A DNA stretch of 52,271 nt from Nitrospirota bacterium (lineage in GTDB: Bacteria; Nitrospirota; 9FT-COMBO-42-15; HDB-SIOI813). Under the pieces are notes generated by a model. The model was given only the letters and a program-made list of their open reading frames with translations. It did no database searches and was not told the DNA's origin. Positions 26,052 through 52,066 of the stretch are shown piece by piece; position 1 is the first letter of the stretch; the number at the start of each line of letters is the position of its first letter. The position numbers and the translations under genes are program-made. Where the stretch lies: the NCBI GenBank assembly GCA_016217665.1, contig JACRHF010000041.1:1-52271 (forward strand), given 5' to 3'.

Positions 26052-26057
26052 CACCGC

Positions 26058-26738: not shown

Positions 26739-26761
26739 GCCTTAATAAGGGAGGGTGGGTT

Positions 26762-27772: not shown

Positions 27773-27799
27773 TAGAGCAGGAATGTGAGGTAAAGGCAA

Positions 27800-29325: not shown

Positions 29326-29385
29326 TAAGTAATGACTACCTCGAGATCGTGATTCTAACCACAGAATGGAATAGAGGATAGATTT

Positions 29386-31639: not shown

Positions 31640-31641
31640 AG

Positions 31642-32553: not shown

Positions 32554-32585
32554 TTAAAAACCCTTTGGAAGGAGGTGAAAAGATA

Positions 32586-32750: not shown

Positions 32751-32781
32751 TCATTTAATTTAATCTAAATGGAGGAAAATT

Positions 32782-33306: not shown

Positions 33307-33369
33307 GGGAGGAACTGCCTCTTTCTGTGCAGCATTCTCTAACACTTTTGGAAAAGGGGGGTAGAAAAG

Positions 33370-34905: not shown

Positions 34906-34964
34906 GTACAGGCAATAGGGTTTCATAAATGATGAGATTGGAAAATTAATAGAGGAGGTTTGTT

Positions 34965-35099
34965 ATGGAAGAAAAACATGAGGATGACTTTCCAGCGCCA
35001 GGCACCTTTGTCATTATTATGATCTTTTTAGCTATGTTTGTTTTGTTCTATTTCTTAAACTGGAAGTGGTTGTCCATGGTCTGGAATATTGGAAAATGA
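34965..35099 (+). CDS. 44-aa single-TM peptide resembling ba3 subunit IIa (not in the ORF track)
   Basis: MEEKHEDDFPAPGTFVIIMIFLAMFVLFYFLNWKWLSMVWNIGK. An AGGAGG Shine-Dalgarno at 34953-34958 lies 6 nt upstream. From memory, the Thermus subunit IIa also begins MEEK. Confidence 0.55.
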   Translation: MEEKHEDDFPAPGTFVIIMIFLAMFVLFYFLNWKWLSMVWNIGK

Positions 35100-35140
35100 G
35101 GGGTATACCCTCGGGGCGCATATAGATAGTTTCTGAATGG

Positions 35141-35186
35141 GCAGTAATTTTATCATGATGCTATGATAAAATTACTGCTTTTTTTT
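35141..35186 (+). terminator. strong rho-independent terminator
   Basis: GCAGTAATTTTATCAT / GATGCT / ATGATAAAATTACTGC (16-bp stem), followed by T8. Confidence 0.85.
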
Positions 35187-35350
35187 CGAACAAGTTCCTT
35201 CCCCCCTTGTTTTAACACCTGATATGATGATTGTCATAGCTTTAAATGGCCGACTGAATTACCATGTTATTAGAGATAGAAGATAACAAATGAAATACCT
35301 ACAAAGCAATTGATGATGTCGTTTAAAGAACCTTAGAGGAGAATCGGCTT

Positions 35351-37465: not shown

Positions 37466-38771
37466 TGTATCAGACCATAGGGTATTACTGACGAGGGATA
37501 TCCCTATGAGTGACTTCCCCTCTTTGGAAACAATCTTTATAGACATGTATGTTGCAAAGAATGGTTATAAGGCAGCGACTAAAGCCCTTCAGGAGATGAA
37601 GCCAGGAGATATTATCGAGGAAGTAAAGAAGTCTGGATTGCGTGGTCGTGGCGGCGGTGGATTCCCAACAGGAAAAAAATGGGAAATGGTGGCCGGAGCA
37701 GCAGGAGAGGAAAAGCATGTCTGCTGCAATGCCGCCGAGGGGGAACAGGAAACATTTAAAGACCGGTGTCTTATACGTTCAAACCCGCATCAATTAATTG
37801 AAGGAATCATTATTGCCTCCTATGCAGTCGGTGCCCATGTGTCTTATTTATATGTCAATGAAAACTATCGTGAAGAGATTACGTTGCTTGAGAAGGCGCT
37901 AAAAGAGGCTCAGGGAAAAGGGTATATCGGTAAAAAAATTCTGGGAACAGATTTCTCACTGGATATTCATATTCAGAAGTGTCCTGATCAATATGTTGCT
38001 GGCGAAGAAACGGCAATGATAGAGGTCATAGAAGGCAGGGCGGCCAAGCCATGGCAAAAGCCCCCTTATTATCCTGCTAACAGGGGCATCTATGGAAATC
38101 CGACCCTTGTAAATAATACAGGAACCTTGTCAAACATACCTCATATTGTCCTTAAAGGCGGCGATTGGTTTTCTCAAGTCGGCTCTCGACAGAACCCAGG
38201 AACAATGCTTTTTACCCTCACCGGTGATATAAACAGACCTGGTATATATGAGTTGCCACTGGGAACCACACTTAGCAAACTTATCAGCAATTGTGGTAAT
38301 GGTTTAAAGGATGGGAGAAGATTTAAGGCAGCCTTTCTGCCGGGTAATTCCCCTCTCACAGAATCACATCTTGAAATCCGCCTTGACTTTGAATCATTAA
38401 AAGAGGCCGGCTCAGGGCTCGGTTGTGCTGCTGTCACTGTCCTGGGGGATGGAACCTGTGCAGTAGCTACAACACTGAAATTTTCCAGGTTTTTTATGAA
38501 TGAGTCATGCGGACAATGCCCCCCCTGCCAGATGGGAACTGCCAATATGGCCATACTGCTTCAGAAAATTGAAGATGGTCATGGAAAAATAGAAGACCTT
38601 GCCGCCATTGAAAACATATGCAGCCTTTCAAAGGGGCAGGGCTACTGTCAGCTTCTATCAGGGGCTGTCTTTGTTGTTGAAGGTGCAATCAGACACTTCA
38701 GAAAGGAGTTTGAGGCCCACATCCATGAAAAGAGATGTCCTCTGCAAAGCAGTTCCGGCAATACGTTATAA
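37458..38771 (+). CDS. NuoF-like NAD(P)H-binding FMN / [4Fe-4S] flavoprotein
   Basis: GLRGRGGGGFPTGKKW (FMN/NADH site), GEETAMIEVIEG, and N3-type cluster ESCGQCPPCQMG...C. The GTG at 37458 has a GAGGAGG Shine-Dalgarno and overlaps the upstream stop (GTGAATAA). Confidence 0.8.
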   Translation: MNNVSDHRVLLTRDIPMSDFPSLETIFIDMYVAKNGYKAATKALQEMKPGDIIEEVKKSGLRGRGGGGFPTGKKWEMVAGAAGEEKHVCCNAAEGEQETFKDRCLIRSNPHQLIEGIIIASYAVGAHVSYLYVNENYREEITLLEKALKEAQGKGYIGKKILGTDFSLDIHIQKCPDQYVAGEETAMIEVIEGRAAKPWQKPPYYPANRGIYGNPTLVNNTGTLSNIPHIVLKGGDWFSQVGSRQNPGTMLFTLTGDINRPGIYELPLGTTLSKLISNCGNGLKDGRRFKAAFLPGNSPLTESHLEIRLDFESLKEAGSGLGCAAVTVLGDGTCAVATTLKFSRFFMNESCGQCPPCQMGTANMAILLQKIEDGHGKIEDLAAIENICSLSKGQGYCQLLSGAVFVVEGAIRHFRKEFEAHIHEKRCPLQSSSGNTL

Positions 38772-38783
38772 AATCTACTTAGA

Positions 38784-40274
38784 TTGAAGAAATTATCCCT
38801 CTATATTGAAGACTGGGCCAACAGGTGTTTCTCGCCCCGATTCAATCCCTTCTATTACCTTGGAGCAATATCCACCCTCTTTTTCATTATCCTGTTAATA
38901 AGTGGTATATACCTGTTTATATTTTACAGGACCAACAGCCCTTATCAGATAGTCCAGGATTTAACTGAAAAACAATGGTATCTGGGTGGCATTATGAGGA
39001 GTATTCATAGATATGCCTCTGATGGCCTGATAATCTCCCTCCTCCTGCATACCCTGCGTGAATATGTTAACGGTAGATACAGTCACTACAGATGGCTGGC
39101 CTGGGTCTCCGGCGTTATACTTTTTATTATCAGTTTGATATTAGGTATTTCAGGCTACTGGCTGGTATGGGACCAAAGGGCCCAGTTAATTGCCCTGAAG
39201 ACATCAGAACTGTTAAATGATGTGCCCCTTTTTATTGAACCTCCATCCAGGTCTTTTCTCAGCAATGAGTCCCTCAGTGGAATGCTCTTTTTCCTTTTGC
39301 ATTTTTTGCATTCAGCTTTACCGTTTGCCATGCTGATACTCATAGGCATACACATCATGAGATGTTCACGCCCGGTACTCAAGACACCTAAGGTTATAAC
39401 GATTGCTGTAATAATCATGCTGCTTATGGTATCTGTTATTAAGCCTGCCACCAGCGCCAAACCTGCAGACCTGAATAGATTACCCCTAACCCCCCCGTTT
39501 GATTGGTTCTTCTTTTTCATATACCCGGTGAAGTCTATTCTTTCAAAACCCATCTTCTGGTCGATGACTACAGGTGTAATCATGATACTCTTTATAATAC
39601 CCTGGATTAAAAGGCATAGGCCGCCTGTTGCACAGGTTGTATTAGAAAACTGCACAGGCTGTGACCAGTGTAATAAGGATTGTCCCTATGGGGCCATCCG
39701 TTTACAGCCCCGCACAGACAGGTTAGCCTATAAAATGGAGGCTGTTATTATGCCTGAGAGATGTGCTGCCTGCGGTATATGTGTAGGAGCCTGCGATTTT
39801 AATGCCGTCAATCTCCCTGGTATGAATGATGTACAGATTAAGGAAGATATAATCAATCTTTTATCTGGCATTCAACGGATAGACAAAAAACCAAAGATAC
39901 TGCTGTGGGTCTGCAAACAAAGCATAAGATTTAATGGTACATTGGATATCATAAAAAGGATGACAAATGTTAAAATTATATCATTGCCCTGTATTGGCAT
40001 GATTCAATCTGAGATGATAGAGGCAGGATTTAATGCCGGCGCAGACGGTATTTTTATCTGCAGTTGCGTGATGGGTGATTGTCAGTACCGTAAAGGCAAC
40101 ATCTGGCTGCAGGAAAGGCTGAGAGACAAAAGACCGCCGCTACTGAATAAAAGAGTTGACCGACGTAGAATCAGGGAATACTGGATGTCGCCTGTCCATA
40201 CTACAAGACTTGTTGCAGAAATAGATCTCTTTGAAGAGGAGCTTAGTGCCTATCATATATCCGGATCTACTTAA
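38784..40274 (+). CDS. paralogous cytochrome b6-like / 2x[4Fe-4S] / MvhD-like fusion (shorter; no C-terminal extension)
   Basis: IHRYASDGLIISLLLH, LHSALPFAMLILIGIH, PFDWFFFFIYP, CTGCDQCNKDCP, CAACGICVGACD, PCIGMIQSEMIEAGFNAGADGIFICSCVMGDCQYRKGN. The apparent start is TTG with no obvious Shine-Dalgarno. Confidence 0.75.
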   Translation: MKKLSLYIEDWANRCFSPRFNPFYYLGAISTLFFIILLISGIYLFIFYRTNSPYQIVQDLTEKQWYLGGIMRSIHRYASDGLIISLLLHTLREYVNGRYSHYRWLAWVSGVILFIISLILGISGYWLVWDQRAQLIALKTSELLNDVPLFIEPPSRSFLSNESLSGMLFFLLHFLHSALPFAMLILIGIHIMRCSRPVLKTPKVITIAVIIMLLMVSVIKPATSAKPADLNRLPLTPPFDWFFFFIYPVKSILSKPIFWSMTTGVIMILFIIPWIKRHRPPVAQVVLENCTGCDQCNKDCPYGAIRLQPRTDRLAYKMEAVIMPERCAACGICVGACDFNAVNLPGMNDVQIKEDIINLLSGIQRIDKKPKILLWVCKQSIRFNGTLDIIKRMTNVKIISLPCIGMIQSEMIEAGFNAGADGIFICSCVMGDCQYRKGNIWLQERLRDKRPPLLNKRVDRRRIREYWMSPVHTTRLVAEIDLFEEELSAYHISGST

Positions 40275-40740
40275 CAATCTCTCCACCTGAATTTATCCAG
40301 GCGGCTACACCCCCATCAAGGTTTTTAATTTTACTGAAACCGAGATTTGAAAGAACATCACTGATCTTTTTTGACCTTTCGCCATTCTCGCAATAGATAA
40401 CAATCTCCTTACCCTTGTCTTTGTTCAAAGCCCTGTCCATATTTTTGAGGCTTGTAAATGGAAGATTAACAGCCCCTTTCAGGTGGCCGTTTTTAAAATC
40501 TTCGCTCGTCCTTGAATCAACAATGATAAGCTCGTTATTCTGGCTCATCAGGTTCACAAGGTCTTTGGATGAGATTGTTTCATATTCATATCTGGGTTCC
40601 TTGCTTCGCCATATATCCGATGTTTTGAATAAAAAGTTTATAATTCCGAAGAGCATAATGAGAATAAAGATGGCCGCATATTGAAGGTATATCTTTTTTT
40701 TTCTATCCATTCTTAAAATCTCCTCTGTTAATTTAGCCAT
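40267..40740 (-). CDS. membrane-anchored single-domain rhodanese (sulfurtransferase)
   Basis: N-terminal TM; active-site loop IVIYCENGERS. It overlaps the upstream gene end convergently by 8 nt. Confidence 0.8.
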   Translation of the reverse strand: MAKLTEEILRMDRKKKIYLQYAAIFILIMLFGIINFLFKTSDIWRSKEPRYEYETISSKDLVNLMSQNNELIIVDSRTSEDFKNGHLKGAVNLPFTSLKNMDRALNKDKGKEIVIYCENGERSKKISDVLSNLGFSKIKNLDGGVAAWINSGGEIVK

Positions 40741-40885: not shown

Positions 40886-43807
40886 ATGAAGGCAGTGATG
40901 AGTCGTACGCGAAGTCAGGAACTTGTCAACGGGTCGCTGGTGAGGCATTGGGCCATCTGGTCCCTGATCTGGCTTACCATCTTTCCCCTGATGGGGCTCT
41001 TGGTCTCGATCAAATTTCACGAGCCTGACTTCCTCGGAGGTATCCCGTGGCTAACCTTTGGAAGGATGCGTCCTATCCATGTGAATGGGGTCATCTTCGG
41101 TGCATTTTCTACCAGTTTTTTCGCCTTGCTCTACTACTTTGTTCCCAGACTCTGTGGGGCCCGGATGTACAAAGAGGAGTGGGGATGGTGGCTGCTGTGG
41201 CTGTGGAACGCATTTCTTATCCTGGGTTCCATCTCCTTTATGATGGGATACAACTCGGGTGTAGAGGCCGCGGAGTATCGGTGGCCGCTTAACATCCTGC
41301 GTTTTGCCGTGTTGTCTCTGATTGCAATTCAGGTCCTGGGGACCATCTTACGCAGAACAGAAAAGCGATTCTACGTGGCCATGTGGTATACCACTGCCGC
41401 CGTCATCTGGACCCTGATGAATCTGATTCTGGGTAATGTCCTGCTCCCTTATGCCCAGGCCTTCACAGGGGTCAACAGTGCGGCTATGCACGGATTGTAT
41501 ATCCATTACATTGTAGGTCTGTGGCTCACACCGGGCGGGCTGGCAATCATCTATTATTTTCTCCCCCTGAGTGCAAAGAACCCGCTTTACAGCCACCGGC
41601 TTTCCCTTCTGGGTTTCTGGTCTCTGGCCTTCTTCTACCCCTTTGTTGGAATCCACCATTATCTCTACAGCCCGATTCCAATCATGTCGCAAACGCTCTC
41701 GATCGTCACCAGCATGCTCTTGATCATCCCGGTCTGGACGGTGACAGTGAATTTCTTCGGGACGATGAAGGGCCGTTGGGGAGCTGTCCTGGGAGGAGGG
41801 GGGGGTGATAACTACGCCGCCAAGTTCTTCATGCTGGGGGCCGTGTATTACCTGCTCGGTTGTTTTCAAGGTTCCACCGAGGCCCTTCGCCGGATCCAGC
41901 AACTGACCCATTTTAATGATTTCGTGATCGGCCACTCTCACCTCACTGTCTTTGGAACCATGGTCGTGTGGGCCATCGGCGGGCTTTATTATGTGTGGCC
42001 CAGGGTTACCGGAAGGGAATTATGGAGTGACCGGTTGGCAAGCTGGCATCTATGGTTGACCATCACGGGATTTAGTGTGATGACGATCGTCCTTACGACG
42101 ATGGGATTTGTCCAGGGTTCGATGCTGGAGTACCAGGCCAATTTTGTTGATACGGTTAAAGAGATGCAGGGCTGGTGGATTGCCCGGACCCTTTCCGGGG
42201 CCGTAATGGATATCGGGTTCATCCTGATGATGATCAATTGTTACAAGACGGTGCAGAAGGGAAAGGTCTTAAAGGGTGAAGTCCCTGAGGGTCCCCTTTG
42301 GGAGGAGGAAACCCCTGTTCGCACAACAGTCAGGGGACGTTGGATGGAGACCCCCTCTACAGTCTTCCTGGCGGCAGGGTTGGGTTTCTTCTTTCTGGCT
42401 GTCTTTGTTCAGGGAATCATTCCCTGGTTGATACCTGAGACCCGCGCGACCACGGTAGCAGATTCCGTGACCAGGAAGCAGATCCAGGTGGCCGACTACA
42501 CCCCTCTCGAACTTCGGGGGAGAAGGGTCTACATCCGGGAGGGATGCTGGTACTGTCATTCTCAATATACCCGCGCGGTTACGGGAGAATCCTTCCGGTG
42601 GGGACCGGTCTCCCAGGCGGGGGAATATGTCCATGATCTCCCTCATCTTTTCGGCACCCGGCGAATCGGCCCGGATCTGACACGCGTCGGGTGTAAATAT
42701 GGAGACGATTGGCATATTGCCCATCACTGGAACCCCCGTCAGATCGTCCCGGATTCGATTATGCCCTCGTTCCCCTGGCTGTTTGAGCCTTATAGGGGGG
42801 ATGCCCCGCCGCAGATGAACGAAGATGGAAAGGCCCTGGTGGCCTATATTCAACGATTGGGAACCTCCATTGGTGATTGGCGGGAGGGATTCACTCCAAC
42901 CCGGCTCTCCTCAGGGGGAGCGCTCAATCTGGACCCGGACGAAAGGGAGGAACTGATCTCACGGGGCAAAGCGGTCTTTGAACGGCGGTGTGCCGGCTGC
43001 CACGGCAATAAAGGGGATGGAAACGGGCCGGCGGCCCGCTTTTTGGACCCTAAACCCCGGGACTTCACCCGTGGCCTATTCAAATTCCGGTCCACGCCAG
43101 GCAAGGACTCTCTCCCCACAGATGCCGATCTCTTCATCACGGTCACTCATGGCCTGTGGGGGACCGCCATGCCACCCTGGCAGGACATCCCGGAGTCTGA
43201 GCGGTTTGCCGTGATCCAGTATATCAAGACCTTCTCTGACCGTTGGCAAAAGGAACCGGTGGATATCCCCATCCCTGTTCCGATAGAGCCCCTGGTCACA
43301 AAGGCCTCGATCGAGAACGGAGAGGCCCTCTTCCACGGCAAGGCCATCTGTTTCATGTGCCATGGGCCGGCCGGAAAAGGGGACGGTCTTCTGGCCGGGG
43401 GGCTCAAAGACACATGGGGTCATCCCATACGACCGGCTGATTTCACCCTCTCGGCTGGGGTCCATGGAGGTGTCAAGCTGGGTCATGATGGAGAACACAT
43501 CTTTAAGACGGTAATGACCGGTGTAGGGGCGACCCCCATGATCCCCTTCCAGGATCAGCTCACCCCGGAACAGGTGTGGGATGTCGTTCACTATGTCCAA
43601 TCCATCCGCATCCAGGCCCATGCATCTGAGTTGATTGCTGCAGGACTGAATACAAAGGATCGTGAAGAGGCGCTGTCCCGGATCTGGGCCTCGCTATCGG
43701 ATGCCGCGGCTCATAAACGCATTGATCAGGAAGTGATACAGATGCAGCTATCCCATCTCAGGGAGAAGGGGATTCACATAGCGGAGGGGAATACCCCGGG
43801 GAGGTGA
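40886..43807 (+). CDS. ccoNOP: cbb3-type oxidase with CcoN, CcoO and a dihaem cytochrome c (CcoP-like) fused in one 973-aa polypeptide
   Basis: CcoN part: RPIHVNGVIFG, YIHYIVGLWLT, VGIHHYLYSP, VIGHSHLTVFG. CcoO part: YIREGCWYCHSQYTR...GTRRIGPDLTRVG. Two further haem sites: CAGCHGNKGDG and CFMCHGPAGKGDG. Confidence 0.85.
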   Translation: MKAVMSRTRSQELVNGSLVRHWAIWSLIWLTIFPLMGLLVSIKFHEPDFLGGIPWLTFGRMRPIHVNGVIFGAFSTSFFALLYYFVPRLCGARMYKEEWGWWLLWLWNAFLILGSISFMMGYNSGVEAAEYRWPLNILRFAVLSLIAIQVLGTILRRTEKRFYVAMWYTTAAVIWTLMNLILGNVLLPYAQAFTGVNSAAMHGLYIHYIVGLWLTPGGLAIIYYFLPLSAKNPLYSHRLSLLGFWSLAFFYPFVGIHHYLYSPIPIMSQTLSIVTSMLLIIPVWTVTVNFFGTMKGRWGAVLGGGGGDNYAAKFFMLGAVYYLLGCFQGSTEALRRIQQLTHFNDFVIGHSHLTVFGTMVVWAIGGLYYVWPRVTGRELWSDRLASWHLWLTITGFSVMTIVLTTMGFVQGSMLEYQANFVDTVKEMQGWWIARTLSGAVMDIGFILMMINCYKTVQKGKVLKGEVPEGPLWEEETPVRTTVRGRWMETPSTVFLAAGLGFFFLAVFVQGIIPWLIPETRATTVADSVTRKQIQVADYTPLELRGRRVYIREGCWYCHSQYTRAVTGESFRWGPVSQAGEYVHDLPHLFGTRRIGPDLTRVGCKYGDDWHIAHHWNPRQIVPDSIMPSFPWLFEPYRGDAPPQMNEDGKALVAYIQRLGTSIGDWREGFTPTRLSSGGALNLDPDEREELISRGKAVFERRCAGCHGNKGDGNGPAARFLDPKPRDFTRGLFKFRSTPGKDSLPTDADLFITVTHGLWGTAMPPWQDIPESERFAVIQYIKTFSDRWQKEPVDIPIPVPIEPLVTKASIENGEALFHGKAICFMCHGPAGKGDGLLAGGLKDTWGHPIRPADFTLSAGVHGGVKLGHDGEHIFKTVMTGVGATPMIPFQDQLTPEQVWDVVHYVQSIRIQAHASELIAAGLNTKDREEALSRIWASLSDAAAHKRIDQEVIQMQLSHLREKGIHIAEGNTPGR

Positions 43808-43810
43808 TCT

Positions 43811-44020
43811 ATGGATGAAGATAAGCAGAAGACTGAAGATTCTTTGCACCCGCGCAAGGCCCCGGCCGACAGGAAACAGGACCCTGAAAGGGTTTATCTT
43901 TACAGGGATGCCGGTATTCAGGTTCGGACTGGGACCATCCCACTGTGGCTCAAGATCGTGGCGATTGGTTTGATGATCTGGGGAGTCTATTACACGATCC
44001 GTTACTGGAACACACCGTAG
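43811..44020 (+). CDS. small membrane protein resembling the N-terminal anchor of CcoP (FixP_N-like)
   Basis: YRDAGIQVRTGTIPLWLKIVAIGLMIWGVYYTIRYW compares with the DGI.E.dN.LP.WW + TM pattern of FixP_N. It starts 4 nt after the ccoNOP stop. Confidence 0.55.
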   Translation: MDEDKQKTEDSLHPRKAPADRKQDPERVYLYRDAGIQVRTGTIPLWLKIVAIGLMIWGVYYTIRYWNTP

Positions 44021-44094: not shown

Positions 44095-45492
44095 TCACCT
44101 CTTGTTTCGGAGGAGTGAGGCGAGGGAATTTACAATAAACAGGATTCCCCCGAGGATGGCTATGCCGCCGCCGATGCCTACGAGGATCATCCCTGCCATT
44201 TTTGCGGCATTGTCCAGCTGCTGTGCCGCGCCAAAGGTCTTGCGGGCCACACCATGGGCGCCTGCCCAGTAGAGGCCGAGGACAAAGAGGGCTTGACCCG
44301 TTCCATAGATATAGGGCTGAATAGCCGCGAGCCTCCGGCTATAGGTCTCCCTTTCCAACAGAGAGAGGAGATGGTTTGTCAGCCCCATGAATGCAAGGGT
44401 GACCCCTCCGATAGCGCCGTGGTAGTGGGAAGGTATCTTTGTGTTATATCCGTATATCTTAAACGATATCAGGCCCCCGAGTCCAAAGAGGATCATTGAA
44501 ATAACCAGCGAAGAGAACTCAGGCCTGTTCCAGGGGAGACCTTTGAACCTCCTTGAGGCGATAAGGGCCAGGATGGCCATGGAAAAAATAGCGGTAGAGG
44601 GTCCGAGTCCGTACTCCATAAGGCCGGTGAAGAACCGGATGTATTCAGGGCTGGAAGTATCAAAGAAGAGGTATATGAACGGTGCCGGGAGAATAAATAT
44701 CAGATAAAGCAGATAGAGCCCCTTCGAATAGCTGTCCCTCATCGGGAACTTTTTAAAGACAAGGCTTGTAAGAAAAAGCCACACGGTCATCATGGTAATG
44801 GTATTGGTAAACTGGAGCACATGCCCCCCGCCCCAGAAGAGGAGTTCCAGATTAAGCGGCATCTTTTGGGATGGCGCCACAACCTGGAAGTAGTATGACA
44901 GCCCAAAGCAGGCGGCTGCGCTGAGGCCGGCTGTCCCTGAGATCGCCATCCCGAAGGTCAGCAAGGGGAGACGGCCCTCATAGCTCTTCTCCTGCCATGC
45001 CTTCCCAATGGTTAAGAAGGTATTGATCAGGGTCAGGATGATCCCTGAGGCCAGTAACAGGAGTCCTGTATAAAAGAGGGGGTGTGTCAAGACAGGGATG
45101 TAATTGATGAACTGCGGGTCGCCTGTGCCGGAAGCCGCGGCAATAATGACAAGCAGGGCGCCGGCAACCGAGAAGAGGAGCCCGCCCCAGCCTAACGTCT
45201 TATTAAACAGTGTGGTGTTTAGAAGAACAGTGCTGGTCCATGTCCATAAGAGCCCCTCAAATGCCAGGAACCAGATGCTAAAGGATAAGGTGACATGTCC
45301 CACTAAGGCGACGCGTATATAATCCGGCCGGGGGAGGAGGCTATGGACAAAGGGGGTTCTTGCCGCGACGATCATGAATGCAAATATCCCGGCAAACATC
45401 AGTGAGGCGACGGCAAAGGTTAGCCAGCCGTAGAGCAGTTTCCGCGTACCTTCATCCAGACTGTTTTTATCAGCATTCATCCTGATCATCAT
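44095..45492 (-). CDS. heme-copper oxidase subunit-I homologue lacking two of the three CuB histidines (paralogue B)
   Basis: Colinear with 29386-30810: LLYGWL, ALVGHVTLSF, NYIPVLTHP, ELLFWGGGHVLQFTNTI, PAPFIYLFFDTSSPEY (no HH), KIPSHYHGAIGGVTLAFMG, IQPYIYG. Confidence 0.75.
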   Translation of the reverse strand: MMIRMNADKNSLDEGTRKLLYGWLTFAVASLMFAGIFAFMIVAARTPFVHSLLPRPDYIRVALVGHVTLSFSIWFLAFEGLLWTWTSTVLLNTTLFNKTLGWGGLLFSVAGALLVIIAAASGTGDPQFINYIPVLTHPLFYTGLLLLASGIILTLINTFLTIGKAWQEKSYEGRLPLLTFGMAISGTAGLSAAACFGLSYYFQVVAPSQKMPLNLELLFWGGGHVLQFTNTITMMTVWLFLTSLVFKKFPMRDSYSKGLYLLYLIFILPAPFIYLFFDTSSPEYIRFFTGLMEYGLGPSTAIFSMAILALIASRRFKGLPWNRPEFSSLVISMILFGLGGLISFKIYGYNTKIPSHYHGAIGGVTLAFMGLTNHLLSLLERETYSRRLAAIQPYIYGTGQALFVLGLYWAGAHGVARKTFGAAQQLDNAAKMAGMILVGIGGGIAILGGILFIVNSLASLLRNKR

Positions 45493-45505
45493 TGTATAAA
45501 AAAAA

Positions 45506-45518
45506 GACTTGACAAGTC
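45506..45518. promoter_or_regulatory. candidate Rrf2-type operator GACTTG-A-CAAGTC
   Basis: The GACT-N5-AGTC core, as in IscR-type Rrf2 sites, lies in the 119-bp divergent region between the HCO paralogue B and the Rrf2 gene. Confidence 0.4.
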
Positions 45519-45611
45519 AATTTAAATAGGATAAATATAGTCCTGTTTGAATCAGGATTGATTTAGTCTTGTTTCTCTTTCAGGCTGCGAACCCATGGAA
45601 AGGAGTTGTGA

Positions 45612-46067
45612 ATGTTCAGACTGAGCAGGGCCGCAGAGTATGGCGTGAGGGGGATCCTTTATCTTGCCAGCAACTATTCTGAAGACAAGGTCTCTGTGAT
45701 CGAAGAGATATCAAAGGCGCAGGATGTCCCGTTGCCTTATATGGCGAAGCTGTTTCAGACATTGGCCAGGAAGGGGTTTGTTAAGTCGTTCAAAGGGCAG
45801 AAGGGTGGGTTTGTCCTTACCAGGCATCCGAAAGAGATCAGCCTGTTGGAGGTGATAGAGGCGATGGAAGGACCTATCTTCTTAAATGTCTGTCTTTTTC
45901 ATGAGGGTTATTGTCCAAGAGATAAGGTGTGTTCTGTCCATGAGGTATGGGCAGAGGCGCAGAAAAGGCTTGTAGATTATCTAAGGGGGTGTAACTTTGC
46001 AGAGATGGCAATCTCGGCAGCAAAGAAAACAAAAGCGTTTAATCAAAAGAAAGGAGGGCCAAAATGA
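45612..46067 (+). CDS. Rrf2-family Fe-S cluster transcriptional regulator (NsrR/IscR-like)
   Basis: N-terminal wHTH (RAAEYGVRGILYLA...ISKAQDVPLPYMAKLFQTLARKGFV) and cluster ligands CLFHEGYCPRDKVCSVH. Confidence 0.85.
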   Translation: MFRLSRAAEYGVRGILYLASNYSEDKVSVIEEISKAQDVPLPYMAKLFQTLARKGFVKSFKGQKGGFVLTRHPKEISLLEVIEAMEGPIFLNVCLFHEGYCPRDKVCSVHEVWAEAQKRLVDYLRGCNFAEMAISAAKKTKAFNQKKGGPK

Positions 46068-46094
46068 ACACTCTTAACCTCAGAAAGGAGGAGA

Positions 46095-46874
46095 ATGACC
46101 ATGAACGAATATGCAGTAGAACATGAGATCTCAGGCCATGAGCCGCATTGGGAGACAAGCCCTTGGCCCCTGGTGCTGAGTATGGCAATGCTGTTCGTCT
46201 TTCCCTTTGCCTTTTCCCTCTATTTTGTATACGGCAAGCCGATCATGGCGATCCTGTCATTAGGGATCGGCATCCCATTGACAGTACTGTCTGTGGCAGG
46301 CTGGATCAGCGAAGGGGTGGGACAGACGCGGGAACCTGGTTATAGCGTCAAGGCGATGCCCTTCTTCATCGTGGCAGAGGCGTTTATCTTTGTCGCCTTT
46401 TTTGTGGGCTACTGGGTGATGCGGCTGAGCGCCTCATCCTGGCCGCCGGCCGGGACGCCGGAGATCGCGCTCACGGTTCCCATCATTATGACCATTGTCC
46501 TGGTATCCTCCAGTTTTACGATCCATCTCAGTGAGCAAAAGATGGAACATGGCGACAGGGGCGGATTCCTGATGTGGCTCATTGTCACGATCATCCTCGG
46601 CACACTCTTTCTCGGTCTCTCCATGAATGAATATTCCCATCTCTTTGCCGAAGGCTTTAATTTTAAGACCAATGCCTACAGCACAGCCTTCTTTTCCATC
46701 ACAGGCTTCCATGCCTCTCATGTATTTGTCGGGATAGCGATGTTCATCTGCATCCTGATACCGGCGCTGATGGGGAAGATGAGCAAGAGCTTTGTGAAAT
46801 CGGCATCCATGTATTGGCACTTTGTGGATATTATCTGGTTTTTTGTAGTGACTCAGGTCTATTTTTGGTCATGA
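46095..46874 (+). CDS. ctaE: A-type cytochrome c oxidase subunit III
   Basis: 7-TM protein; FFSITGFHASHVFVG and YWHFVDIIWFFV are typical of Cox3. Confidence 0.85.
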   Translation: MTMNEYAVEHEISGHEPHWETSPWPLVLSMAMLFVFPFAFSLYFVYGKPIMAILSLGIGIPLTVLSVAGWISEGVGQTREPGYSVKAMPFFIVAEAFIFVAFFVGYWVMRLSASSWPPAGTPEIALTVPIIMTIVLVSSSFTIHLSEQKMEHGDRGGFLMWLIVTIILGTLFLGLSMNEYSHLFAEGFNFKTNAYSTAFFSITGFHASHVFVGIAMFICILIPALMGKMSKSFVKSASMYWHFVDIIWFFVVTQVYFWS

Positions 46875-46900
46875 TCTGAGGAGATGTAGGGGGGAAGGGC

Positions 46901-47722
46901 GTGAGAAAGTTAGCGATCGTTATCTCCTGGATACTCCTATTAATAACTCCGCAGGCCGCATCCGCTGAGTATGGGGTCATCCCGGAATCTGCGATGGATC
47001 CCTCGGTTGTAAAAATAGATGAGGAAAAATACTTGGGTACCCGGCTCTCAGGGGACTATATCTTAATCGATGAGAGCGGGAAAGAGTTTCAACTGAGGGA
47101 TATCACAGGAAGACCTGTCATTCTTCTCCTCTCCTATTTTTCTTGCAATGGTCTTTGCCCGACGGCCAATCAGGGGTTGAAGGACGCCCTTTCAGCCCTA
47201 AACAGGCTTAAGATCGGAGAAGATTTCAGGGTACTGACGCTCTCCTTTGATAAAAAGGACGACGCCCAGAGTATCCGGATGTTTTCCGAAATGGCCGGCC
47301 TGAAAGGATGGTCTGGTAAGGGTTGGAAGGTCGCTATCCTGAAAGATGGAGAGGATATTGAAAGACTGACCAGGGACGTGGGTTTCAAATTCTTCTGGTC
47401 ATCGAGGGATAAGATGTTTCTTCACCCCAATGTCTTCATCTTCCTGTCGCCCGAGGGGAGGGTCGTGAGATACCTCTATGGCACACCCCCCAAGACAAGG
47501 GATCTGGAGCTTGCCCTCACTGAGGCGGCTGAGGGGAAGGCCGCTGGCTCAGGAATCATCGACTTTGTCAGTATGGCCTGTTATAGTTTTAACTTCAAGG
47601 AGGGGAGATATACCGTCAACATCCCCATCTTCATTGGACTCGGTTCCCTGCTGTTGGGGATCTCCTCCATCGTGGTACCCATTGTAGTCTTAAGAAGAAG
47701 AAGAAAGGAGGCAGGGTCATGA
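46901..47722 (+). CDS. SCO1/SenC copper chaperone with a C-terminal TM extension
   Basis: CNGLC motif and conserved His (FLHPN). GTG start. The C-terminal CYSFNFKEGRYTVN + TM parallels the other SCO copy. Confidence 0.8.
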   Translation: MRKLAIVISWILLLITPQAASAEYGVIPESAMDPSVVKIDEEKYLGTRLSGDYILIDESGKEFQLRDITGRPVILLLSYFSCNGLCPTANQGLKDALSALNRLKIGEDFRVLTLSFDKKDDAQSIRMFSEMAGLKGWSGKGWKVAILKDGEDIERLTRDVGFKFFWSSRDKMFLHPNVFIFLSPEGRVVRYLYGTPPKTRDLELALTEAAEGKAAGSGIIDFVSMACYSFNFKEGRYTVNIPIFIGLGSLLLGISSIVVPIVVLRRRRKEAGS

Positions 47723-48390
47723 ATGAGGCATTTGCGTACGCAGAGAGGGGGGCTCCGGGACAGATCCCGGATGTCCCAGGCGGCTGGGATCACCTTTTTG
47801 GTGAGATGTTGATTGACATCACAATCATAGGGATCCTCTTTACCGTCATAACCGTGTACCTTTTGATAAGGTACAGACGCAGAGAGCAGGGGCAGGAGGG
47901 GAACCCTCCGAGGCTCACGACAGCCGCGGCTATAGGATGGGCCATTATCCCCGCATTTATCTTTATGGCGGATGACTTTTATCTTGCGGCAGAGGGCTGG
48001 ACCCTCTTTAACGAATACAGGAGGGTGCCTGAGAATGCCTATGAGGTGAAGGTCGAGGGCTCCATGTGGAGCTGGCACTTTATATATCCGGAAGGGGTTG
48101 AGAGCTTCGGTGAATTGCGGGTCCCTGCGGGGACGCCGGTCGTGGTCCGGATGACCAGTAAGGATGTGGTGCACAGCTTCTTCATCCCGGACTTTAGGGT
48201 CAAGCAGGATATGATGCCCGGCAGGATGACCTATCTGTGGTTTTATCCCAAAGCGCCTGGCGAACACCTGATCACCTGTGCAGAGTATTGCGGTCTGATG
48301 CACTCCGGGATGAAGGGGATGATAAAGGTCGTATCGCAGGATGAGTTTAACAACTGGATCGAGACAGAGAAGAAAAACAATAATACATAG
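47719..48390 (+). CDS. ctaC: A-type cytochrome c oxidase subunit II (CuA; no fused cytochrome c)
   Basis: Two TM segments, DVVHSFFIPDF and CAEYCGLMHSGM. Confidence 0.9.
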   Translation: MNEAFAYAERGAPGQIPDVPGGWDHLFGEMLIDITIIGILFTVITVYLLIRYRRREQGQEGNPPRLTTAAAIGWAIIPAFIFMADDFYLAAEGWTLFNEYRRVPENAYEVKVEGSMWSWHFIYPEGVESFGELRVPAGTPVVVRMTSKDVVHSFFIPDFRVKQDMMPGRMTYLWFYPKAPGEHLITCAEYCGLMHSGMKGMIKVVSQDEFNNWIETEKKNNNT

Positions 48391-48405
48391 AAGGGGGGTA
48401 GAACC

Positions 48406-50025
48406 ATGTATGCAACAGAAGAAGCATTGAGGCACAAGCCAGGTTTTGGCCAGACCCTCAGGGAATGGATCTTTACAATAGATCATAAGAGGATCGGCAT
48501 CCTCTATCTGATAGGTTCACTCGCTGCCTTTGCCGTTGCAGGTCTGATGGCCCTGCTGATCAGGATAGAGCTTGGATCTCTGGGGCCGACATTAACGTCC
48601 AATCCGGGGACGTACAATGTCTGGCTCTATTTTCATGGTGCGGCCATGATCCTTGCCTTTCAAATCCCGGCGCTGACCGGTTTCTTAGCCAACTATCTGG
48701 TGCCCCTGATGATCGGCGCCAGGGACATGGCCTTTCCAAGGCTCAATGCCCTGAGCCTCTGGCTCTACTGGGCAGGGATCATCCTGGCCCTGCTCACCTT
48801 TGTCATCCCGGATCCGCCCGATGTCATGTGGACAGGTTATCCCCCCTATTCGCTCAAGACTGGGGGGAATACCGCATTCTATGTCTTTACCGTACACCTG
48901 ATGGGCTTCTCATCCATCGTCGGCGGGATCAATCTGCTGACCACGATATTTTATATGCGCGCCCCGGGACTGAAGCTGAACAAGCTGAACATCTTTGTCT
49001 GGAGCACGATGGGGGCATTTGTCTTGCAGCTGGTTTTCATCCCGGTCCTGGCTGCTGCGGTTACTACGCTCCTCTTTGACAAGTATCTTGGCACCCACTT
49101 CTACGATCCGGCAAACGGCGGGGATGTCCTCTTATATCAGAACCTCTTCTGGTTCTACTCGCATCCGGCAGTCTACGTCATCCTCCTTCCTACCATCGGG
49201 ATGATCTTCGATATCGTGGCGACCTTTGCCAAGAACCGGGTCTTTAATTATAATATGGTCGTCTATGGCGGGATCGGCGGGGTGGTCCTCATGAGCGGCG
49301 AGGTCTGGATCCACCATCTCTTTACATCCGGGATGCCGGACTGGATCAGGATCGGTATGATGATCAGCACCCTCCTGATCAGTATCCCGGTGGGTCTCCT
49401 GATGATAGGCCTCTTAGGCACCCTGTACCGGGGGGCCATTCAGTACACCACACCCATGCTCTATGCCGTCGGTTTTATATTTCTCTTCCTGATCGGGGGA
49501 CTGACAGGGATCCCCAACGCCATGACCGCCATTGACCTCTACATCCACGATACCCATTTCGTTGTGGCCCATTTTCATTATGTAATGGCCGTGGCCACTA
49601 CGTTCGCCATCTTTGGAAGCGTCTATTACCTCTTCCCCAAGATGACCGGCAGGATGTACAGTGAGACCTTAGGGAAGATCGGATTTTTTATCCTGTTTGC
49701 CGGGGTCAACATTACATTTTTCACCATGTTTATTGTTGGATTCAAGGGGATGCCGCGGAGATACTATGACTACCAGCAGTTTCCGCAATTAGAAGGGCTG
49801 CATCACATTATCACGATAGGCGCCTATATTATAGGGATCGCTGCGCTCCTGATCCTCATCTCATGGATCCATGGGTTGATTGCAGGGAAGAAGGCCCCGG
49901 ATAATCCCTGGGGATCCAAATCCTTAGAGTGGACTACCAGCACACCGCCCCCGCCGGGCAACTTCCGGGAACTGCCCATTTTAACAGAGGAGTGGCATCC
50001 CTATGGATATGGGCGGTCAAAATAG
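48406..50025 (+). CDS. ctaD: A2-type cytochrome c oxidase subunit I
   Basis: FWFYSHPAVYVILLP (the YS motif instead of the helix-VI Glu marks A2 type), HHLFTSG and HFHYVMAV. Confidence 0.92.
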   Translation: MYATEEALRHKPGFGQTLREWIFTIDHKRIGILYLIGSLAAFAVAGLMALLIRIELGSLGPTLTSNPGTYNVWLYFHGAAMILAFQIPALTGFLANYLVPLMIGARDMAFPRLNALSLWLYWAGIILALLTFVIPDPPDVMWTGYPPYSLKTGGNTAFYVFTVHLMGFSSIVGGINLLTTIFYMRAPGLKLNKLNIFVWSTMGAFVLQLVFIPVLAAAVTTLLFDKYLGTHFYDPANGGDVLLYQNLFWFYSHPAVYVILLPTIGMIFDIVATFAKNRVFNYNMVVYGGIGGVVLMSGEVWIHHLFTSGMPDWIRIGMMISTLLISIPVGLLMIGLLGTLYRGAIQYTTPMLYAVGFIFLFLIGGLTGIPNAMTAIDLYIHDTHFVVAHFHYVMAVATTFAIFGSVYYLFPKMTGRMYSETLGKIGFFILFAGVNITFFTMFIVGFKGMPRRYYDYQQFPQLEGLHHIITIGAYIIGIAALLILISWIHGLIAGKKAPDNPWGSKSLEWTTSTPPPPGNFRELPILTEEWHPYGYGRSK

Positions 50026-50049
50026 CCGTAAAGGTAATACCTCGGTGGA

Positions 50050-50213
50050 GGGGGGGACGTTTTCCCTTCGCTCCTGGCCTTCGCAGTTGACCTATCTAAG
50101 GACTCGCAGGCGGGGAAGCCTTCCAGCCTCTAACGGGCTGGCTTTCCTCCACCTGCTCGCCTTGATAGGTGCCCAACTGCTTCGGCAAGTCGCTCAGGGA
50201 AAACGTCCCCCCC
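50050..50213. repeat. 164-bp imperfect palindrome with perfect 18-bp terminal inverted repeats
   Basis: GGGGGGGACGTTTTCCCT ... AGGGAAAACGTCCCCCCC, with a central hairpin CCAGCC-TCTAACG-GGCTGG. It lies between ctaD and ctaA. Confidence 0.8.
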
Positions 50214-50249
50214 TTCACAGTTGGGTTATCCGTAAAGGAGGGATAGACA

Positions 50250-51182
50250 ATGAAGAACGATAATGCAAGGTCCTTAAGCCTCAGCACAATGATAGATACC
50301 ACAAAGGTCAACACGATCCTGGGGGTTACGATTCTATTCCTGTATTTCCTGATGGTCATGGGGACGTTTGTCACCTCGACAGGGTCCGGGCTTGCCTGTC
50401 CTGACTGGCCCCTCTGTTATGGTTCTGTCACCCCGCCATTAAAGTTAAGCATCTGGTTTGAGTGGGGGCACAGACTCCTCGGCGGCATCACAGGGTTATT
50501 GATCGTCACCTCGACACTCCTTGTCTGGCGCCGGTATAGAGGGATCCCCCGTCTTCTGACAGGGATTGTAGTGGGACTGCTGTTAACGGCTGTCTTCATC
50601 GGAGGGGTTACCGTCCTGATCGAGGCGCCCTACCTTGACAGCCTTATCAGGATTGCGATCGTCTCCTCTCACTTGATCATAGCGACCCTCGTCCTGATTT
50701 CCCTCCTCTTTATCCTGAGAAGGATTGCGGAAGAGAGGCATGTCGGCGAAAGGGGATATCATTTTCTCCTCTTCTGTGCAGTCTATTTCCAGGTCATCCT
50801 TGGGATATTGGTCCGCTATTCAAAGGCCTCGCTGGCCTGTCCGGACTTCCCGCTTTGTCAGGGGAAGGTCATCCCGTCGTTTTCCAATTATGCCGTAGCC
50901 CTCCATTTTTCTCACCGGATTCTCGCGTTGACAGTCGTTCTCTTAACGACGATACTTCTTGTCAGGGCTATTCAGAAAAGAAGCGGGGTTGAGACTTCAT
51001 TCATTACCTTTACCCTTGTCCTCCTTCAGGCTCTATTTGGTATCCTGATCGTCTTAACCGGGATGTTTTTGCCCCTGATCATCATGCACGGGGCTACAGG
51101 CTTTCTCCTCTTAGGCTGGCTTGCCTATCAGGCGGCACCTTTTCTGCTCCGGAATATCGTTTGGAAGGGGGGTGCCTTATGA
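50250..51182 (+). CDS. ctaA: heme A synthase
   Basis: Duplicated CPDWPLCYG / CPDFPLCQG motifs and conserved His residues (WGHRLLG, HFSHRILA). Confidence 0.9.
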   Translation: MKNDNARSLSLSTMIDTTKVNTILGVTILFLYFLMVMGTFVTSTGSGLACPDWPLCYGSVTPPLKLSIWFEWGHRLLGGITGLLIVTSTLLVWRRYRGIPRLLTGIVVGLLLTAVFIGGVTVLIEAPYLDSLIRIAIVSSHLIIATLVLISLLFILRRIAEERHVGERGYHFLLFCAVYFQVILGILVRYSKASLACPDFPLCQGKVIPSFSNYAVALHFSHRILALTVVLLTTILLVRAIQKRSGVETSFITFTLVLLQALFGILIVLTGMFLPLIIMHGATGFLLLGWLAYQAAPFLLRNIVWKGGAL

Positions 51183-52066
51183 AAGGCTATGCATTAGAGA
51201 GCGCTGTTTCAAAAAGGTCTCTGATTGGCGACTACCTCCTCCTTGCCAAGCCGGGTATCGTCTCTCTGGTCCTGATGTCAGCCCTGACAGGCCTCTGCAT
51301 TGGCAGCCGGGGCCTGCCCGATGCGGAGTTGACCTTGTGGGTCATGTTAGGGGTGGGGCTGGCGACCGCGGGTTCAGCGGTCTTGAATAACTTTTTTGAC
51401 AGGGACATTGATTGCTTAATGGAGAGGACGCGTGCCAGGACTTTGGCCCTTGAGGCGGTCTCACCCGGAAATGCCGTTATGTTGGGGAGTCTGTTGACCG
51501 GATCAGGAATCCTGATCCTTGGGGTTGCGGTGAATCCGCCTTCGGCCATCCTGACGGCTTTTGCGGCATTGGGATATGTCGGCCTCTACACCATCTTCTT
51601 GAAAAGGAGGACCCCTTTTGCCAACCAGGTTGGTGGGATTGCAGGGGCCCTGCCGCCTCTCATAGGCTATGCGGCTGTAACGCAGCATATTGATGTTAGG
51701 GGAATGATCCTCTTCGGGATCGTTGCGGTCTGGCAGCAGCCGCATGCCCTGAGTATTGCCCTCAAGTATAAGGAGGAGTACCGAAGGGCATGTATACCGG
51801 TAGTGCCGGTGGCGAAAGGCGTTCGTTCCACCAAGACGCGAATTGTCATCTATACGGCCCTCCTGCTTCCGGCGAGCATCCTTCCCTATCTTTATGGGAT
51901 GGCCGGTCTGTTATACGCGGCTGTTTCTATCACGTTGGGCATCTTTTATTTGGTCATTGCAGGGAGGTTTATGCTATCGAAGAAAGAGTGTGATATGTTT
52001 CTCTTCTTCTATTCTCTCGTATATATTACAATGATATTTGCGGCAATGATTTTAAACATGACATAA
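51179..52066 (+). CDS. ctaB: protoheme IX farnesyltransferase (heme O synthase), second copy
   Basis: NNFFDRDIDCLMERTRARTL. The ATG at 51179 overlaps the ctaA stop (ATGA); the track ORF opens at a TTG at 51161. Confidence 0.88.
   Translation: MKGYALESAVSKRSLIGDYLLLAKPGIVSLVLMSALTGLCIGSRGLPDAELTLWVMLGVGLATAGSAVLNNFFDRDIDCLMERTRARTLALEAVSPGNAVMLGSLLTGSGILILGVAVNPPSAILTAFAALGYVGLYTIFLKRRTPFANQVGGIAGALPPLIGYAAVTQHIDVRGMILFGIVAVWQQPHALSIALKYKEEYRRACIPVVPVAKGVRSTKTRIVIYTALLLPASILPYLYGMAGLLYAAVSITLGIFYLVIAGRFMLSKKECDMFLFFYSLVYITMIFAAMILNMT

Follow-up and report, generated by a model that had tools for sequence, protein, structure and literature searches.

What can be the role of a haem-copper oxidase (HCO) homologue that has lost most of its active-site metal ligands, and is such a protein controlled together with the aerobic oxidase encoded beside it? 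Both questions are raised by a contig of a Nitrospirota bacterium (JACRHF010000041.1, assembly GCA_016217665.1), analysed here over its 52,271 nt, which we call the window. In it, the gene for an HCO subunit-I homologue, paralogue B, is transcribed away from the gene for an Rrf2-family regulator that leads an A2-type oxidase operon, while a second copy, paralogue A, heads a cluster of NO reductase (eNOR) genes. We refer to the family of B/A-type subunit-I paralogues as HCOx. Our explanation as a whole, to which we would give an even chance, is that B is a functional accessory HCOx, that the Rrf2 protein is an Fe-S leader of the cta operon acting at a conserved dyad, and that a coupling between the two can be inferred. 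The genes concerned are as follows.

44095 to 45492, minus strand: paralogue B (HCOx), HCO subunit-I homologue with 12 transmembrane helices (12-TM), from the open reading frame (ORF) and Pfam COX1
45612 to 46067, plus strand: Rrf2-family regulator of 151 aa, leader of the cta operon, with C94, C101, C107, H110 and an acidic residue 9
46095 to 52066, plus strand: A2-type oxidase operon
29386 to 30810, plus strand: paralogue A (HCOx), first gene of an eNOR supercluster with low GC content at third codon positions (GC3)

Paralogue B retains the haem ligands and has lost two of three active-site histidines

The ORF of paralogue B is intact and encodes 465 aa on the minus strand (44095-45492). It matches Pfam COX1 (PF00115) with an E-value of 7.8e-21 and 74.9 bits (gathering cut-off 34.8); a search of NCBIfam with B returned no equivalog match. 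The AF2 model of the protein (pLDDT 93.6, pTM 0.92) has 12 helices, and its best structural matches are B-family (ba3-type) oxidases, with a TM-score of 0.81. The profile match and the 12-TM subunit-I fold place B in the HCO superfamily, and the set of three His that forms the CuB/FeB site is incomplete.

Ligand positions were mapped by aligning B with CtaD, CcoN and the B-like HCO of the window and by profile and BLAST comparison with ba3 oxidase and eNOR subunit I. The haem ligands are retained: H66 in helix II and H356/H358 in helix X align with known ligands, H66 and H358 corresponding to the bis-His low-spin haem site and H356 to the high-spin axial His, all of them invariant. The haem-propionate residues R417/K418 are kept as well. 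At the CuB/FeB site, helix-VI His224 (in WGGGH) is the sole His left out of three. The HH position of helix VII is occupied by I274/Y275 in the profile and BLAST alignments, and a scan of residues 225-355 found no His in B, whereas CtaD, eNOR I, CcoN and ba3 have HH there. The position of the cross-linked Tyr is F228, and Phe is nearly invariant at this place throughout the family. B thus lacks the cross-linked Tyr of O2-reducing HCOs; it also departs from eNOR in having Phe rather than Gln at the Tyr position, a single His and no adjoining cupredoxin gene.

The initial annotation had described A and B as colinear, with the same substitutions, and as intact copies kept by selection. This agrees with our results: the two proteins align colinearly with 50% identity across 460 residues, GGGHVLQF and PAPFIYLFFDTSSPEY are both found in B, the HH pair is absent, comparison of B with four orthologues gives a dN/dS of 0.13-0.18, and the key residues are invariant across the family. 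B is under purifying selection. Its annotated ATG overlaps a predicted -10 box, so translation may start instead from Met5 (ATG at 45480), a start that fits the N-terminal length seen in homologues.

HCOx is a widespread family close to eNOR

The eNOR family was described by Murali et al. 2024 (PMC11214002), and Gln at the position of the cross-linked Tyr is diagnostic of eNOR subunit I (PMC8756737). An eNOR is encoded in the window itself, where the product of 33370-34905 has this Gln (GHSSQQ) together with EHH and is accompanied by 32782-33306 as the second subunit. B is 31% identical to this eNOR I (E = 6e-53), compared with 16-20% identity to CtaD, CcoN and ba3. Because B is closest to eNOR I, which carries the published eNOR diagnostic, HCOx appears from its sequence to be a paralogue that is derived from the eNOR/B-type oxidases and has lost the second-metal site.

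Comparison with known HCOs is consistent with this placement. The closest catalytic relative of B is eNOR subunit I (Rhodothermus marinus; PMC11214002), with 31% full-length identity. Common to both are the Gln in H-x-x-Q, B-family ancestry and the neighbouring genes for haem O synthase and SCO; eNOR I, however, keeps the three metal-binding His and Gln at the Tyr position, while HCOx has I/Y and Phe and comes without a subunit II. The best profile match of B is the ba3 oxidase subunit I (Thermus thermophilus 1EHK and Aquifex 7DEG, E = 1e-18 to 1e-22). B and ba3 have the same order of helices and the same haem ligands (TM-score 0.81), but HCOx has neither the CuB site nor the His-Tyr cross-link, is one helix shorter (12 against 13) and shares only 18-20% identity. 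In having an active-site His replaced HCOx resembles gNOR, reported as the first HCO family with such a replacement (Murali et al. 2024, PMC11214002); in gNOR one His is changed to Asp and the enzyme is proposed to be still catalytic, whereas HCOx lacks two His.

A word-indexed search in which 8000 candidates were scored yielded 823 HCOx relatives, and at least 583 HCOx loci were found in a scan with one genome per GTDB species. They come from metagenome-assembled genomes (MAGs) of 'Deltaproteobacteria'/Thermodesulfobacteriota, from Nitrospinota, Nitrospirota and Burkholderiales, from several sulphur-oxidising Gammaproteobacteria and from a single MAG that is labelled Halobacteria. When 1.84 billion cluster representatives were searched with a profile, 711 clusters (50% identity) were retrieved at E <= 1e-30. 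In 67 members compared, little or no variation is seen at the haem ligands, WGGGH-x-LQF-x-NT, P271, D278 and AG-x-HGV-x-RK. Fusions of family members are held by representatives P0121, P0129/P0271, P0139 and P0238: a CytB-HCOx fusion is represented by two 761-aa proteins from two contigs, and an HCOx-UbiA fusion by one protein from one contig, which as a Rosetta-stone argument carries little weight. An HCOx-TPR fusion was seen in two representatives.

Neither the main text nor the preprint of Murali et al. 2021/2024 was found to describe the family. It has been noticed recently in a preprint by Becker et al. 2026, which names an 'eNOR scaffold protein of unknown function' (bioRxiv 10.64898/2026.01.22.701106). 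According to the same preprint, the gene in Ferrigenium straubiae (IMG 2878407321) is annotated as 'hypothetical protein' with KO K02274 (COX1) and sits between two cytochrome-b/Fe-S genes; it is transcribed, and its product was found in the proteome at an abundance near that of the eNOR subunits. Matched by gene order and annotation, the HCOx family appears to be this 'eNOR scaffold protein', and the synteny expected of it was found in the 80 best HCOx loci and in the relatives L081-L083. B would thus add a member to an uncharacterised family of HCO paralogues that was noticed and named only recently. The F. straubiae operon is similar to the supercluster of the window in comprising eNOR II, eNOR I, haem o synthase, Sco1 and two FlpD proteins; its gene order is that of proteobacterial HCOx loci, and the window agrees with it in gene content. 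Unlike the F. straubiae operon, the window has two HCOx copies and, unlike the scaffold gene, B lies outside the eNOR block, has the composition of the cta and ccoNOP genes and is divergent from Rrf2-cta.

Genomic neighbourhood of HCOx

In the window, A opens the eNOR supercluster (29386-40740, GC3 0.41-0.47), which is followed by a ccoNOP-like block before B is reached.

30758 to 40740: rest of the eNOR supercluster
30758 to 31639: haem O synthase (UbiA)
31642 to 32553: SCO
32782 to 33306: eNOR II
33370 to 34905: eNOR I (GHSSQQ, EHH)
35351 to 37465 and 38784 to 40274: CytB-Fer4-FlpD
37374 to 38771: NuoF-like
40267 to 40740, minus strand: rhodanese
40886 to 44020, plus strand: ccoN-ccoO-dihaem-c fusion gene and 69-aa ORF

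The initial annotation had noted that the regions of A and B differ in composition, and GC3 bears this out: A (0.44) is like the eNOR cluster, and B (0.66) is like ccoNOP and cta. In L082 and L085, whose B orthologues are about 89-92% identical, the eNOR supercluster ends with the rhodanese gene, B comes immediately after it, and B and Rrf2-cta diverge. In L083, with a 71% identical orthologue, B also follows the supercluster, with a small cytochrome c gene before it; no Rrf2 gene was found within the 543 nt available beside B there. B thus stands where the eNOR block, next to which it is also found in relatives, meets the cta block, whose composition it has. The ccoN-ccoO-dihaem-c block looks like an insertion in this genome because it is missing between rhodanese and B in L082 and L085.

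Neighbourhood counts refer to the best 80 of the at least 583 HCOx loci. Their recurrent order is eNOR II, eNOR I, (HCOx), UbiA (haem O synthase), SCO, two CytB-Fer4-FlpD genes, (HCOx). HCOx followed by UbiA, and in some cases by a small cytochrome c, also forms an isolated module; in about nine loci HCOx, UbiA and cytochrome c occur without an eNOR, cta or other HCO gene within 8 kb. In L032, L038, L042, L044, L070 and L077 HCOx is found at the end of A-type cta operons or beside them. CytB-Fer4-FlpD adjoins HCOx in about 40 of the 80 loci; for such cytochrome-b/Fe-S/FlpD proteins the Ferrigenium preprint speculates on a quinol:NAD+ module (bioRxiv 10.64898/2026.01.22.701106). Genes of denitrification recur as well: NirK in the window, and NirS, NirN/F-like and NosR-like genes at other loci. 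A role of HCOx as a replacement of haem A synthase (CtaA) was ruled out, as CtaA/COX15-like genes (C-x2-WP-x-CYG) co-occur in 19 of the 80 loci and the window also has ctaA.

Several further features of these neighbourhoods were observed. Upstream of A the window encodes a histidine kinase, a response regulator, a cytochrome c, a NirK-like protein and an alginate-export-type porin (21976-29074), the NirK-like multicopper protein at 26762-27772; in L012 a related pair of histidine kinase and response regulator genes leads directly to Rrf2 and HCOx. Within the supercluster, the NuoF-like ORF, as called from a TTG start, has its first 92 nt (37374-37465) in common with the end of the CytB-Fer4-FlpD gene before it; the true start of the NuoF-like gene is probably further downstream. 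On the plus strand, a single 973-aa ORF (40886-43807, GC3 0.66) joins CcoN, CcoO and a CcoP-like dihaem cytochrome c; it is followed by the 69-aa ORF (43811-44020), with a weak FixP_N match. Small membrane proteins of 136-137 aa resembling the C-terminal helices of CcoN form a cluster near HCOx/eNOR in nine loci (for example L001:3786-4196, L014:2079-2492 and L022:6848-7261). Two Nitrospirota MAGs have, downstream of HCOx, SCO and an AAA+ ATPase that by eye is NorQ/CbbQ-like (L023:2855-3667 and the same position in L024; Walker A GPTGCGKT); NorQ-type proteins load cNOR with its non-haem iron. In 'delta' MAG loci (L005, L009-L011, L013, L014, L020, L022) HCOx and UbiA are preceded by divergent Fe-S assembly genes, by eye Nfu-like (75 aa) and Mrp/ApbC-like (~350 aa), and in L022 an IscR-like Rrf2 gene and a gene for a cysteine desulfurase come after them. 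A 1419-aa neighbour in 'delta' loci looks on inspection like a BadF/BcrA-type activase fusion, with no relation to respiration.

Function of HCOx

With both haem sites kept and the CuB/FeB site and Tyr gone, HCOx would bind two haems and no second metal. Because two of the three CuB/FeB His and the cross-linked Tyr are lost, it should be unable to act as a canonical O2 or NO reductase. We propose that HCOx contributes to respiratory HCO gene clusters as an accessory component. The reading that we favour, tentatively and with somewhat less than even confidence, is that of a haem-loaded, non-catalytic partner that would, together with haem O synthase and SCO, mature or stabilise eNOR and/or the A-type oxidase. 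We favour an accessory role because HCOx occurs among biogenesis genes, together with two catalytic HCO types, and without a subunit II. NifEN, from an unrelated family, offers an analogy of principle only, as a non-catalytic paralogue that serves as a scaffold for cofactor maturation.

Two considerations weigh against this reading. The term 'scaffold' is the preprint's name, given without data. In addition, the approximately nine stand-alone modules, the CytB-HCOx fusion, the conserved distal pocket and the abundance of the protein in F. straubiae fit a redox enzyme or relay at least as well. HCOx (A and B) would then be an autonomous, copper-free, haem-only redox enzyme or an electron-relay subunit rather than an assembly factor, for example a haem O protein that reacts with NO or O2 and is fed by a small cytochrome c or by CytB-Fer4-FlpD. 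Besides the two haem sites, this alternative can draw on R417/K418 and a strictly conserved distal pocket (WGGGH-x-LQF-x-NT), on loci where eNOR and cta are absent within 8 kb, on the occurrence of the CytB fusion in two contigs and of CytB-Fer4-FlpD beside HCOx in about half of the loci, on the denitrification context and on a protein level in F. straubiae comparable to that of the eNOR subunits. The co-encoded haem O synthase could supply the cofactor of HCOx itself, much as cyoE supplies that of cytochrome bo3. We nevertheless consider the alternative rather unlikely, since HCOx has no dedicated subunit II or haem-c partner, the characterised HCO NO and O2 reductases all need a second metal, those reducing O2 also the Tyr, and HCOx is found with two catalytic HCO types (eNOR, A-type) and biogenesis genes.

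That B is a decaying duplicate without function, as the lost active-site ligands and the second copy in the window could suggest, can hardly be entertained: the intact ORF and its dN/dS rule out a pseudogene, the same substitutions are fixed in hundreds of species, the predicted fold is of high confidence, and the F. straubiae homologue is expressed.

The Rrf2 regulator leads an A2-type oxidase operon

The genes that follow the regulator on the plus strand are:

46095 to 46874, plus strand: ctaE
46901 to 47722, plus strand: SCO-like
47719 to 48390, plus strand: ctaC
48406 to 50025, plus strand: ctaD (YSHPAV)
50250 to 51182, plus strand: ctaA
51161 to 52066, plus strand: ctaB

CtaD reads LFWFYSHPAVYV and has FYSHPAVY, the A2-type signature; a YSHPxV motif in helix VI, in place of the D-channel Glu motif, reportedly defines this type. 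The stop codon of the regulator gene is 27 nt from the start of ctaE, and no terminator-like site was found in this gap. The proposal of the initial annotation that the regulator leads the A2-type operon is supported by synteny, which is kept at 62-95% identity of the regulator.

The regulator scores 112.8 bits against PF02082 (cut-off 30) and 116.2 bits against TIGR00738 (cut-off 73.3). It had been annotated as an NsrR/IscR-like Rrf2 protein with a C-x7-C-x5-C-x2-H cluster motif. Membership in Rrf2 and the Cys3-His set stand; the spacing has to be corrected to C94-x6-C101-x5-C107-x2-H110. These four residues and the acidic position 9 are kept down to 38% identity. It is not an equivalog of NsrR or IscR: the scores fall below the equivalog cut-offs for IscR (TIGR02010, 84.2 of 207.55 bits; NF008110, 57.1 of 275) and NsrR (NF008240, 57.7 bits, cut-off 182), and equally below those for RirA, CymR and SufR. 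The best solved relatives range from Thermincola IscR (59 bits) down to S. coelicolor NsrR (28.6 bits). With these NCBIfam scores and a cta rather than isc/suf context, assignment as IscR or NsrR was ruled out. The regulator appears from its sequence to be a new Rrf2 subfamily that leads the A2-type oxidase operon.

It would have the winged-helix Rrf2 fold of E. coli IscR, NsrR, RsrR, RirA and CymR. Its Cys3-His set resembles C92/C98/C104/H107 of IscR, though with C-x6-C-x5-C-x2-H instead of C-x5-C-x5-C-x2-H, and its E9 appears to align with Asp8 of NsrR, which there acts as a ligand beside three Cys. We propose that it is an Fe-S sensor of the Cys3-His type, leader of the cta operon and probably its own regulator. 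A counterpart by family and gene context is CtaR of Acidithiobacillus ferrooxidans, an Rrf2 gene found with aa3 and haem A biogenesis genes, whose regulator it is on bioinformatic prediction (Quatrini et al. 2009, PMC2754497); CtaR follows ctaABT, whereas the regulator of the window leads ctaE-sco-ctaCD.

A metagenome scan for the regulator gave 73 loci. Orthologues 93-95% identical have the same arrangement as the window, with B adjoining. Most of those at 62-68% identity (L089, L095-L098, L100, L106) have the order Rrf2, (small ORF), ctaE, sco, ctaC, ctaD, ctaA, and in these no HCOx gene was found within 5 kb. In L091-L094 (63% identity) unrelated genes follow Rrf2, and L090 and L099 end before the genes downstream of it. 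Divergent or upstream neighbours of 68% orthologues are cytochrome c-nirDL/GH-nirS-nirJ (L089:1-3427, L106:1-2434) and cytochrome c-eNOR II (L090:1-1097), and in L097-L100 a gene for an HD-GYP protein lies upstream. In L012, L032 and L038, more distant Rrf2 genes (37-60% identity) have HCOx, cta or both as neighbours. From these gene orders the firm association is that of Rrf2 with cta, and those with HCOx and denitrification genes are recurrent but looser.

A conserved inverted repeat is the best candidate operator

The 119-bp intergenic region between B and the regulator (45493-45611) contains the following elements.

45506 to 45518: palindrome GACTTGACAAGTC, with the plus-strand -35 TTGACA (45509-45514) inside and an A-tract before it
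45520 to 45515, minus strand: TTGACT, -35 of the predicted B promoter, overlapping GACTTGACAAGTC
45491 to 45496, minus strand: predicted -10 TACAAT for B, from a consensus scan only, overlapping the annotated start codon
45532 to 45538, plus strand: conserved TAAATAT block, inferred -10 of the Rrf2-cta promoter, 17-18 nt after TTGACA
45540 to 45558: conserved inverted repeat GTCCTG-N7-CAGGAT, candidate operator, spanning the inferred transcription start
45565 to 45571, plus strand: third direct half-site AGTCTTG (GGTCTT in orthologues), between the repeat and the ribosome-binding site

The palindrome, with its GACT-N5-AGTC core, had been proposed as the operator. Both the palindrome and the 119-bp region are as described, but as an operator the palindrome was rejected; most likely it is no more than the -35 element. 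The window has one match to GACT-N5-AGTC where 0.53 would be expected, and 38 of 100 shuffles contain at least one. The pattern is missing from the other orthologous promoters. TTGACAA is by itself a 7-nt palindrome, and what is conserved in orthologous promoters is the -35 hexamer in CTTGACA; the GAC/GTC arms are replaced by unrelated bases at 62-68% regulator identity, and in the 90% relative L081 the perfect palindrome has already given way to GATTTGACAAGTC. L081 also carries, at ~290-470, an insertion of ~170 nt with internal inverted repeats between the promoter block and the HCOx start codon.

Alignment of eleven orthologous Rrf2 upstream regions gave a conserved order: an A-tract, CTTGACA (45498-45514 in the window for both), a 17-18-nt spacer ending in ATAGGA, TAAATAT, the repeat GTCYTG-N7-CARGAY, a third GGTCTT(G) and the ribosome-binding site. 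The repeat was then sought, with one mismatch allowed, in ~226 kb comprising the window and loci L081-L106. It is present upstream of Rrf2 in L082, L085-L090, L095-L100 and L106; a variant with a 9-nt spacer, which the scan does not score, is found there in L091-L094. L081 ends before this position, and in the remaining scanned loci no repeat was found at it. Exact matches in the ~226 kb lie only upstream of Rrf2, the few others with one mismatch being in coding or unrelated sites, and a search for extra copies upstream of A, eNOR, ccoNOP and NirK gave chance-level matches only. Two look-alikes at chance level are GTCTTGAATAAGTAATGAC at 29318-29336, 50 nt upstream of A (two mismatches), and GTTTTGCTTAATTCAAGAC at 33643-33661 within eNOR I, which is also present in the L081 orthologue.

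The GTCYTG-N7-CARGAY dyad with the third half-site (45540-45571) thus appears to be the best candidate for the Rrf2 operator. The regulator most likely binds the dyad and the third half-site and would occlude the transcription start. A dyad at its own promoter suggests autoregulation, as in characterised Rrf2 sensors. The motif appears to differ from those published for IscR and NsrR.

Counting against the operator, the evidence for it is that of conservation, the -10 and transcription-start positions are themselves predicted from sequence, and one stem pair of the repeat covaries from T:A to C:G through T:G intermediates, as in RNA. The repeat and the third copy could instead act in the mRNA leader, as one or more hairpins that govern how well the Rrf2-cta mRNA is translated or how stable it is. 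Being located after the inferred -10, the repeat is probably transcribed, T:G intermediates are tolerated in an RNA stem and not in a DNA palindrome, and the middle arm can pair with either GUCUUG copy, the downstream one adjoining the ribosome-binding site. We regard such a leader as doubtful: the stem has six pairs only, a weak consensus energy of -5.8 kcal/mol and a single covarying pair, the loop sequence is conserved too, and a search of the intergenic region against Rfam gave no family match. A 19-bp dyad at an Rrf2 promoter is, moreover, the textbook geometry of autoregulation, as with IscR, which has a dyad at its own promoter. A reading of the repeat as a terminator was rejected, since orthologues do not keep the T-rich tail.

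Possible coupling of B to the regulator

B would be transcribed from a promoter back to back with that of Rrf2-cta, with a common -35 region. The candidate, TTGACT-18-TACAAT (45520-45491, minus strand), has 10 of 12 consensus matches; against it, the consensus scan found two such sites where 2.1 were expected, which is the chance frequency. Because the bound dyad would be centred ~60 bp upstream of the B start, a distance compatible with activation, the regulator may influence B as well. Given the back-to-back promoters and the recurrent association of Rrf2, HCOx, cta and denitrification genes, B and the oxidase may be under joint control; control in opposite directions is a possibility if the minus-strand promoter of B is real. 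NO-responsive joint control is hypothetical.

The initial annotation had envisaged an IscR/NsrR-like Rrf2 protein that binds GACT-N5-AGTC (45506-45518) and controls B and cta jointly upon NO. In its favour are a perfect 13-nt palindrome that lies between the genes and overlaps both predicted -35 elements, a core resembling the E. coli IscR type-1 core (ATASYYGACTRWWWYAGTCRRSTAT), triads of Rrf2, HCOx and cta in L012, L032 and L038, and denitrification genes divergent to orthologous regulators. We find this model improbable: the pattern is at chance level and conserved only in CTTGACA, with GATTTGACAAGTC in L081, a better-conserved repeat lies 22 nt downstream, the regulator is below the cut-offs for IscR (84 vs 207 bits) and NsrR (58 vs 182), and HCOx does not adjoin the regulator in 62-68% orthologues. 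The adjacency of B and Rrf2, taken there as a joint unit, is lineage-specific, being present at 93-95% Rrf2 identity and gone at 62-68%. The link to NO and denitrification remains plausible, with nirS-type or eNOR II genes as neighbours of Rrf2 in L089, L106 and L090. B is better understood as part of an eNOR/cta respiratory neighbourhood than as a member of an Rrf2 regulon.

A bolder reading, against which the chances lie although it merits mention, is that HCOx is an undescribed functional HCO class, a two-haem protein free of Cu and Fe at the second-metal site, acting as a scaffold or haem-only enzyme and reciprocally tied in its expression to the A2 oxidase. This reading takes two forms. 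HCOx could be a scaffold for the hand-over of haem O/A that joins haem O synthase to the maturation of eNOR/aa3, or a haem-only enzyme reactive to NO or O2 and wired to cytochrome-b/Fe-S modules. In this lineage, an Fe-S Rrf2 switch at a shared bidirectional promoter would provide the reciprocal tie.

Implications

The active-site His is fully conserved in all HCO families except gNOR (Murali et al. 2024, PMC11214002). HCOx is a family that lacks two of three. It is under purifying selection, occurs in at least 583 species-level genomes and is physically linked to eNOR, a family of NO reductases that matters for N2O emission. Whether as scaffold, relay or new enzyme, its role would change the annotation of eNOR-based denitrification. 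The Rrf2-cta promoter with its conserved dyad offers a testable case of an Fe-S sensor and an aerobic oxidase beside denitrification genes. HCOx could bear on the supply of haem-A-type cofactor to eNOR under near-anoxia and, if the scaffold reading is true, it bears on how such a cofactor is delivered to NO reductases at very low O2.

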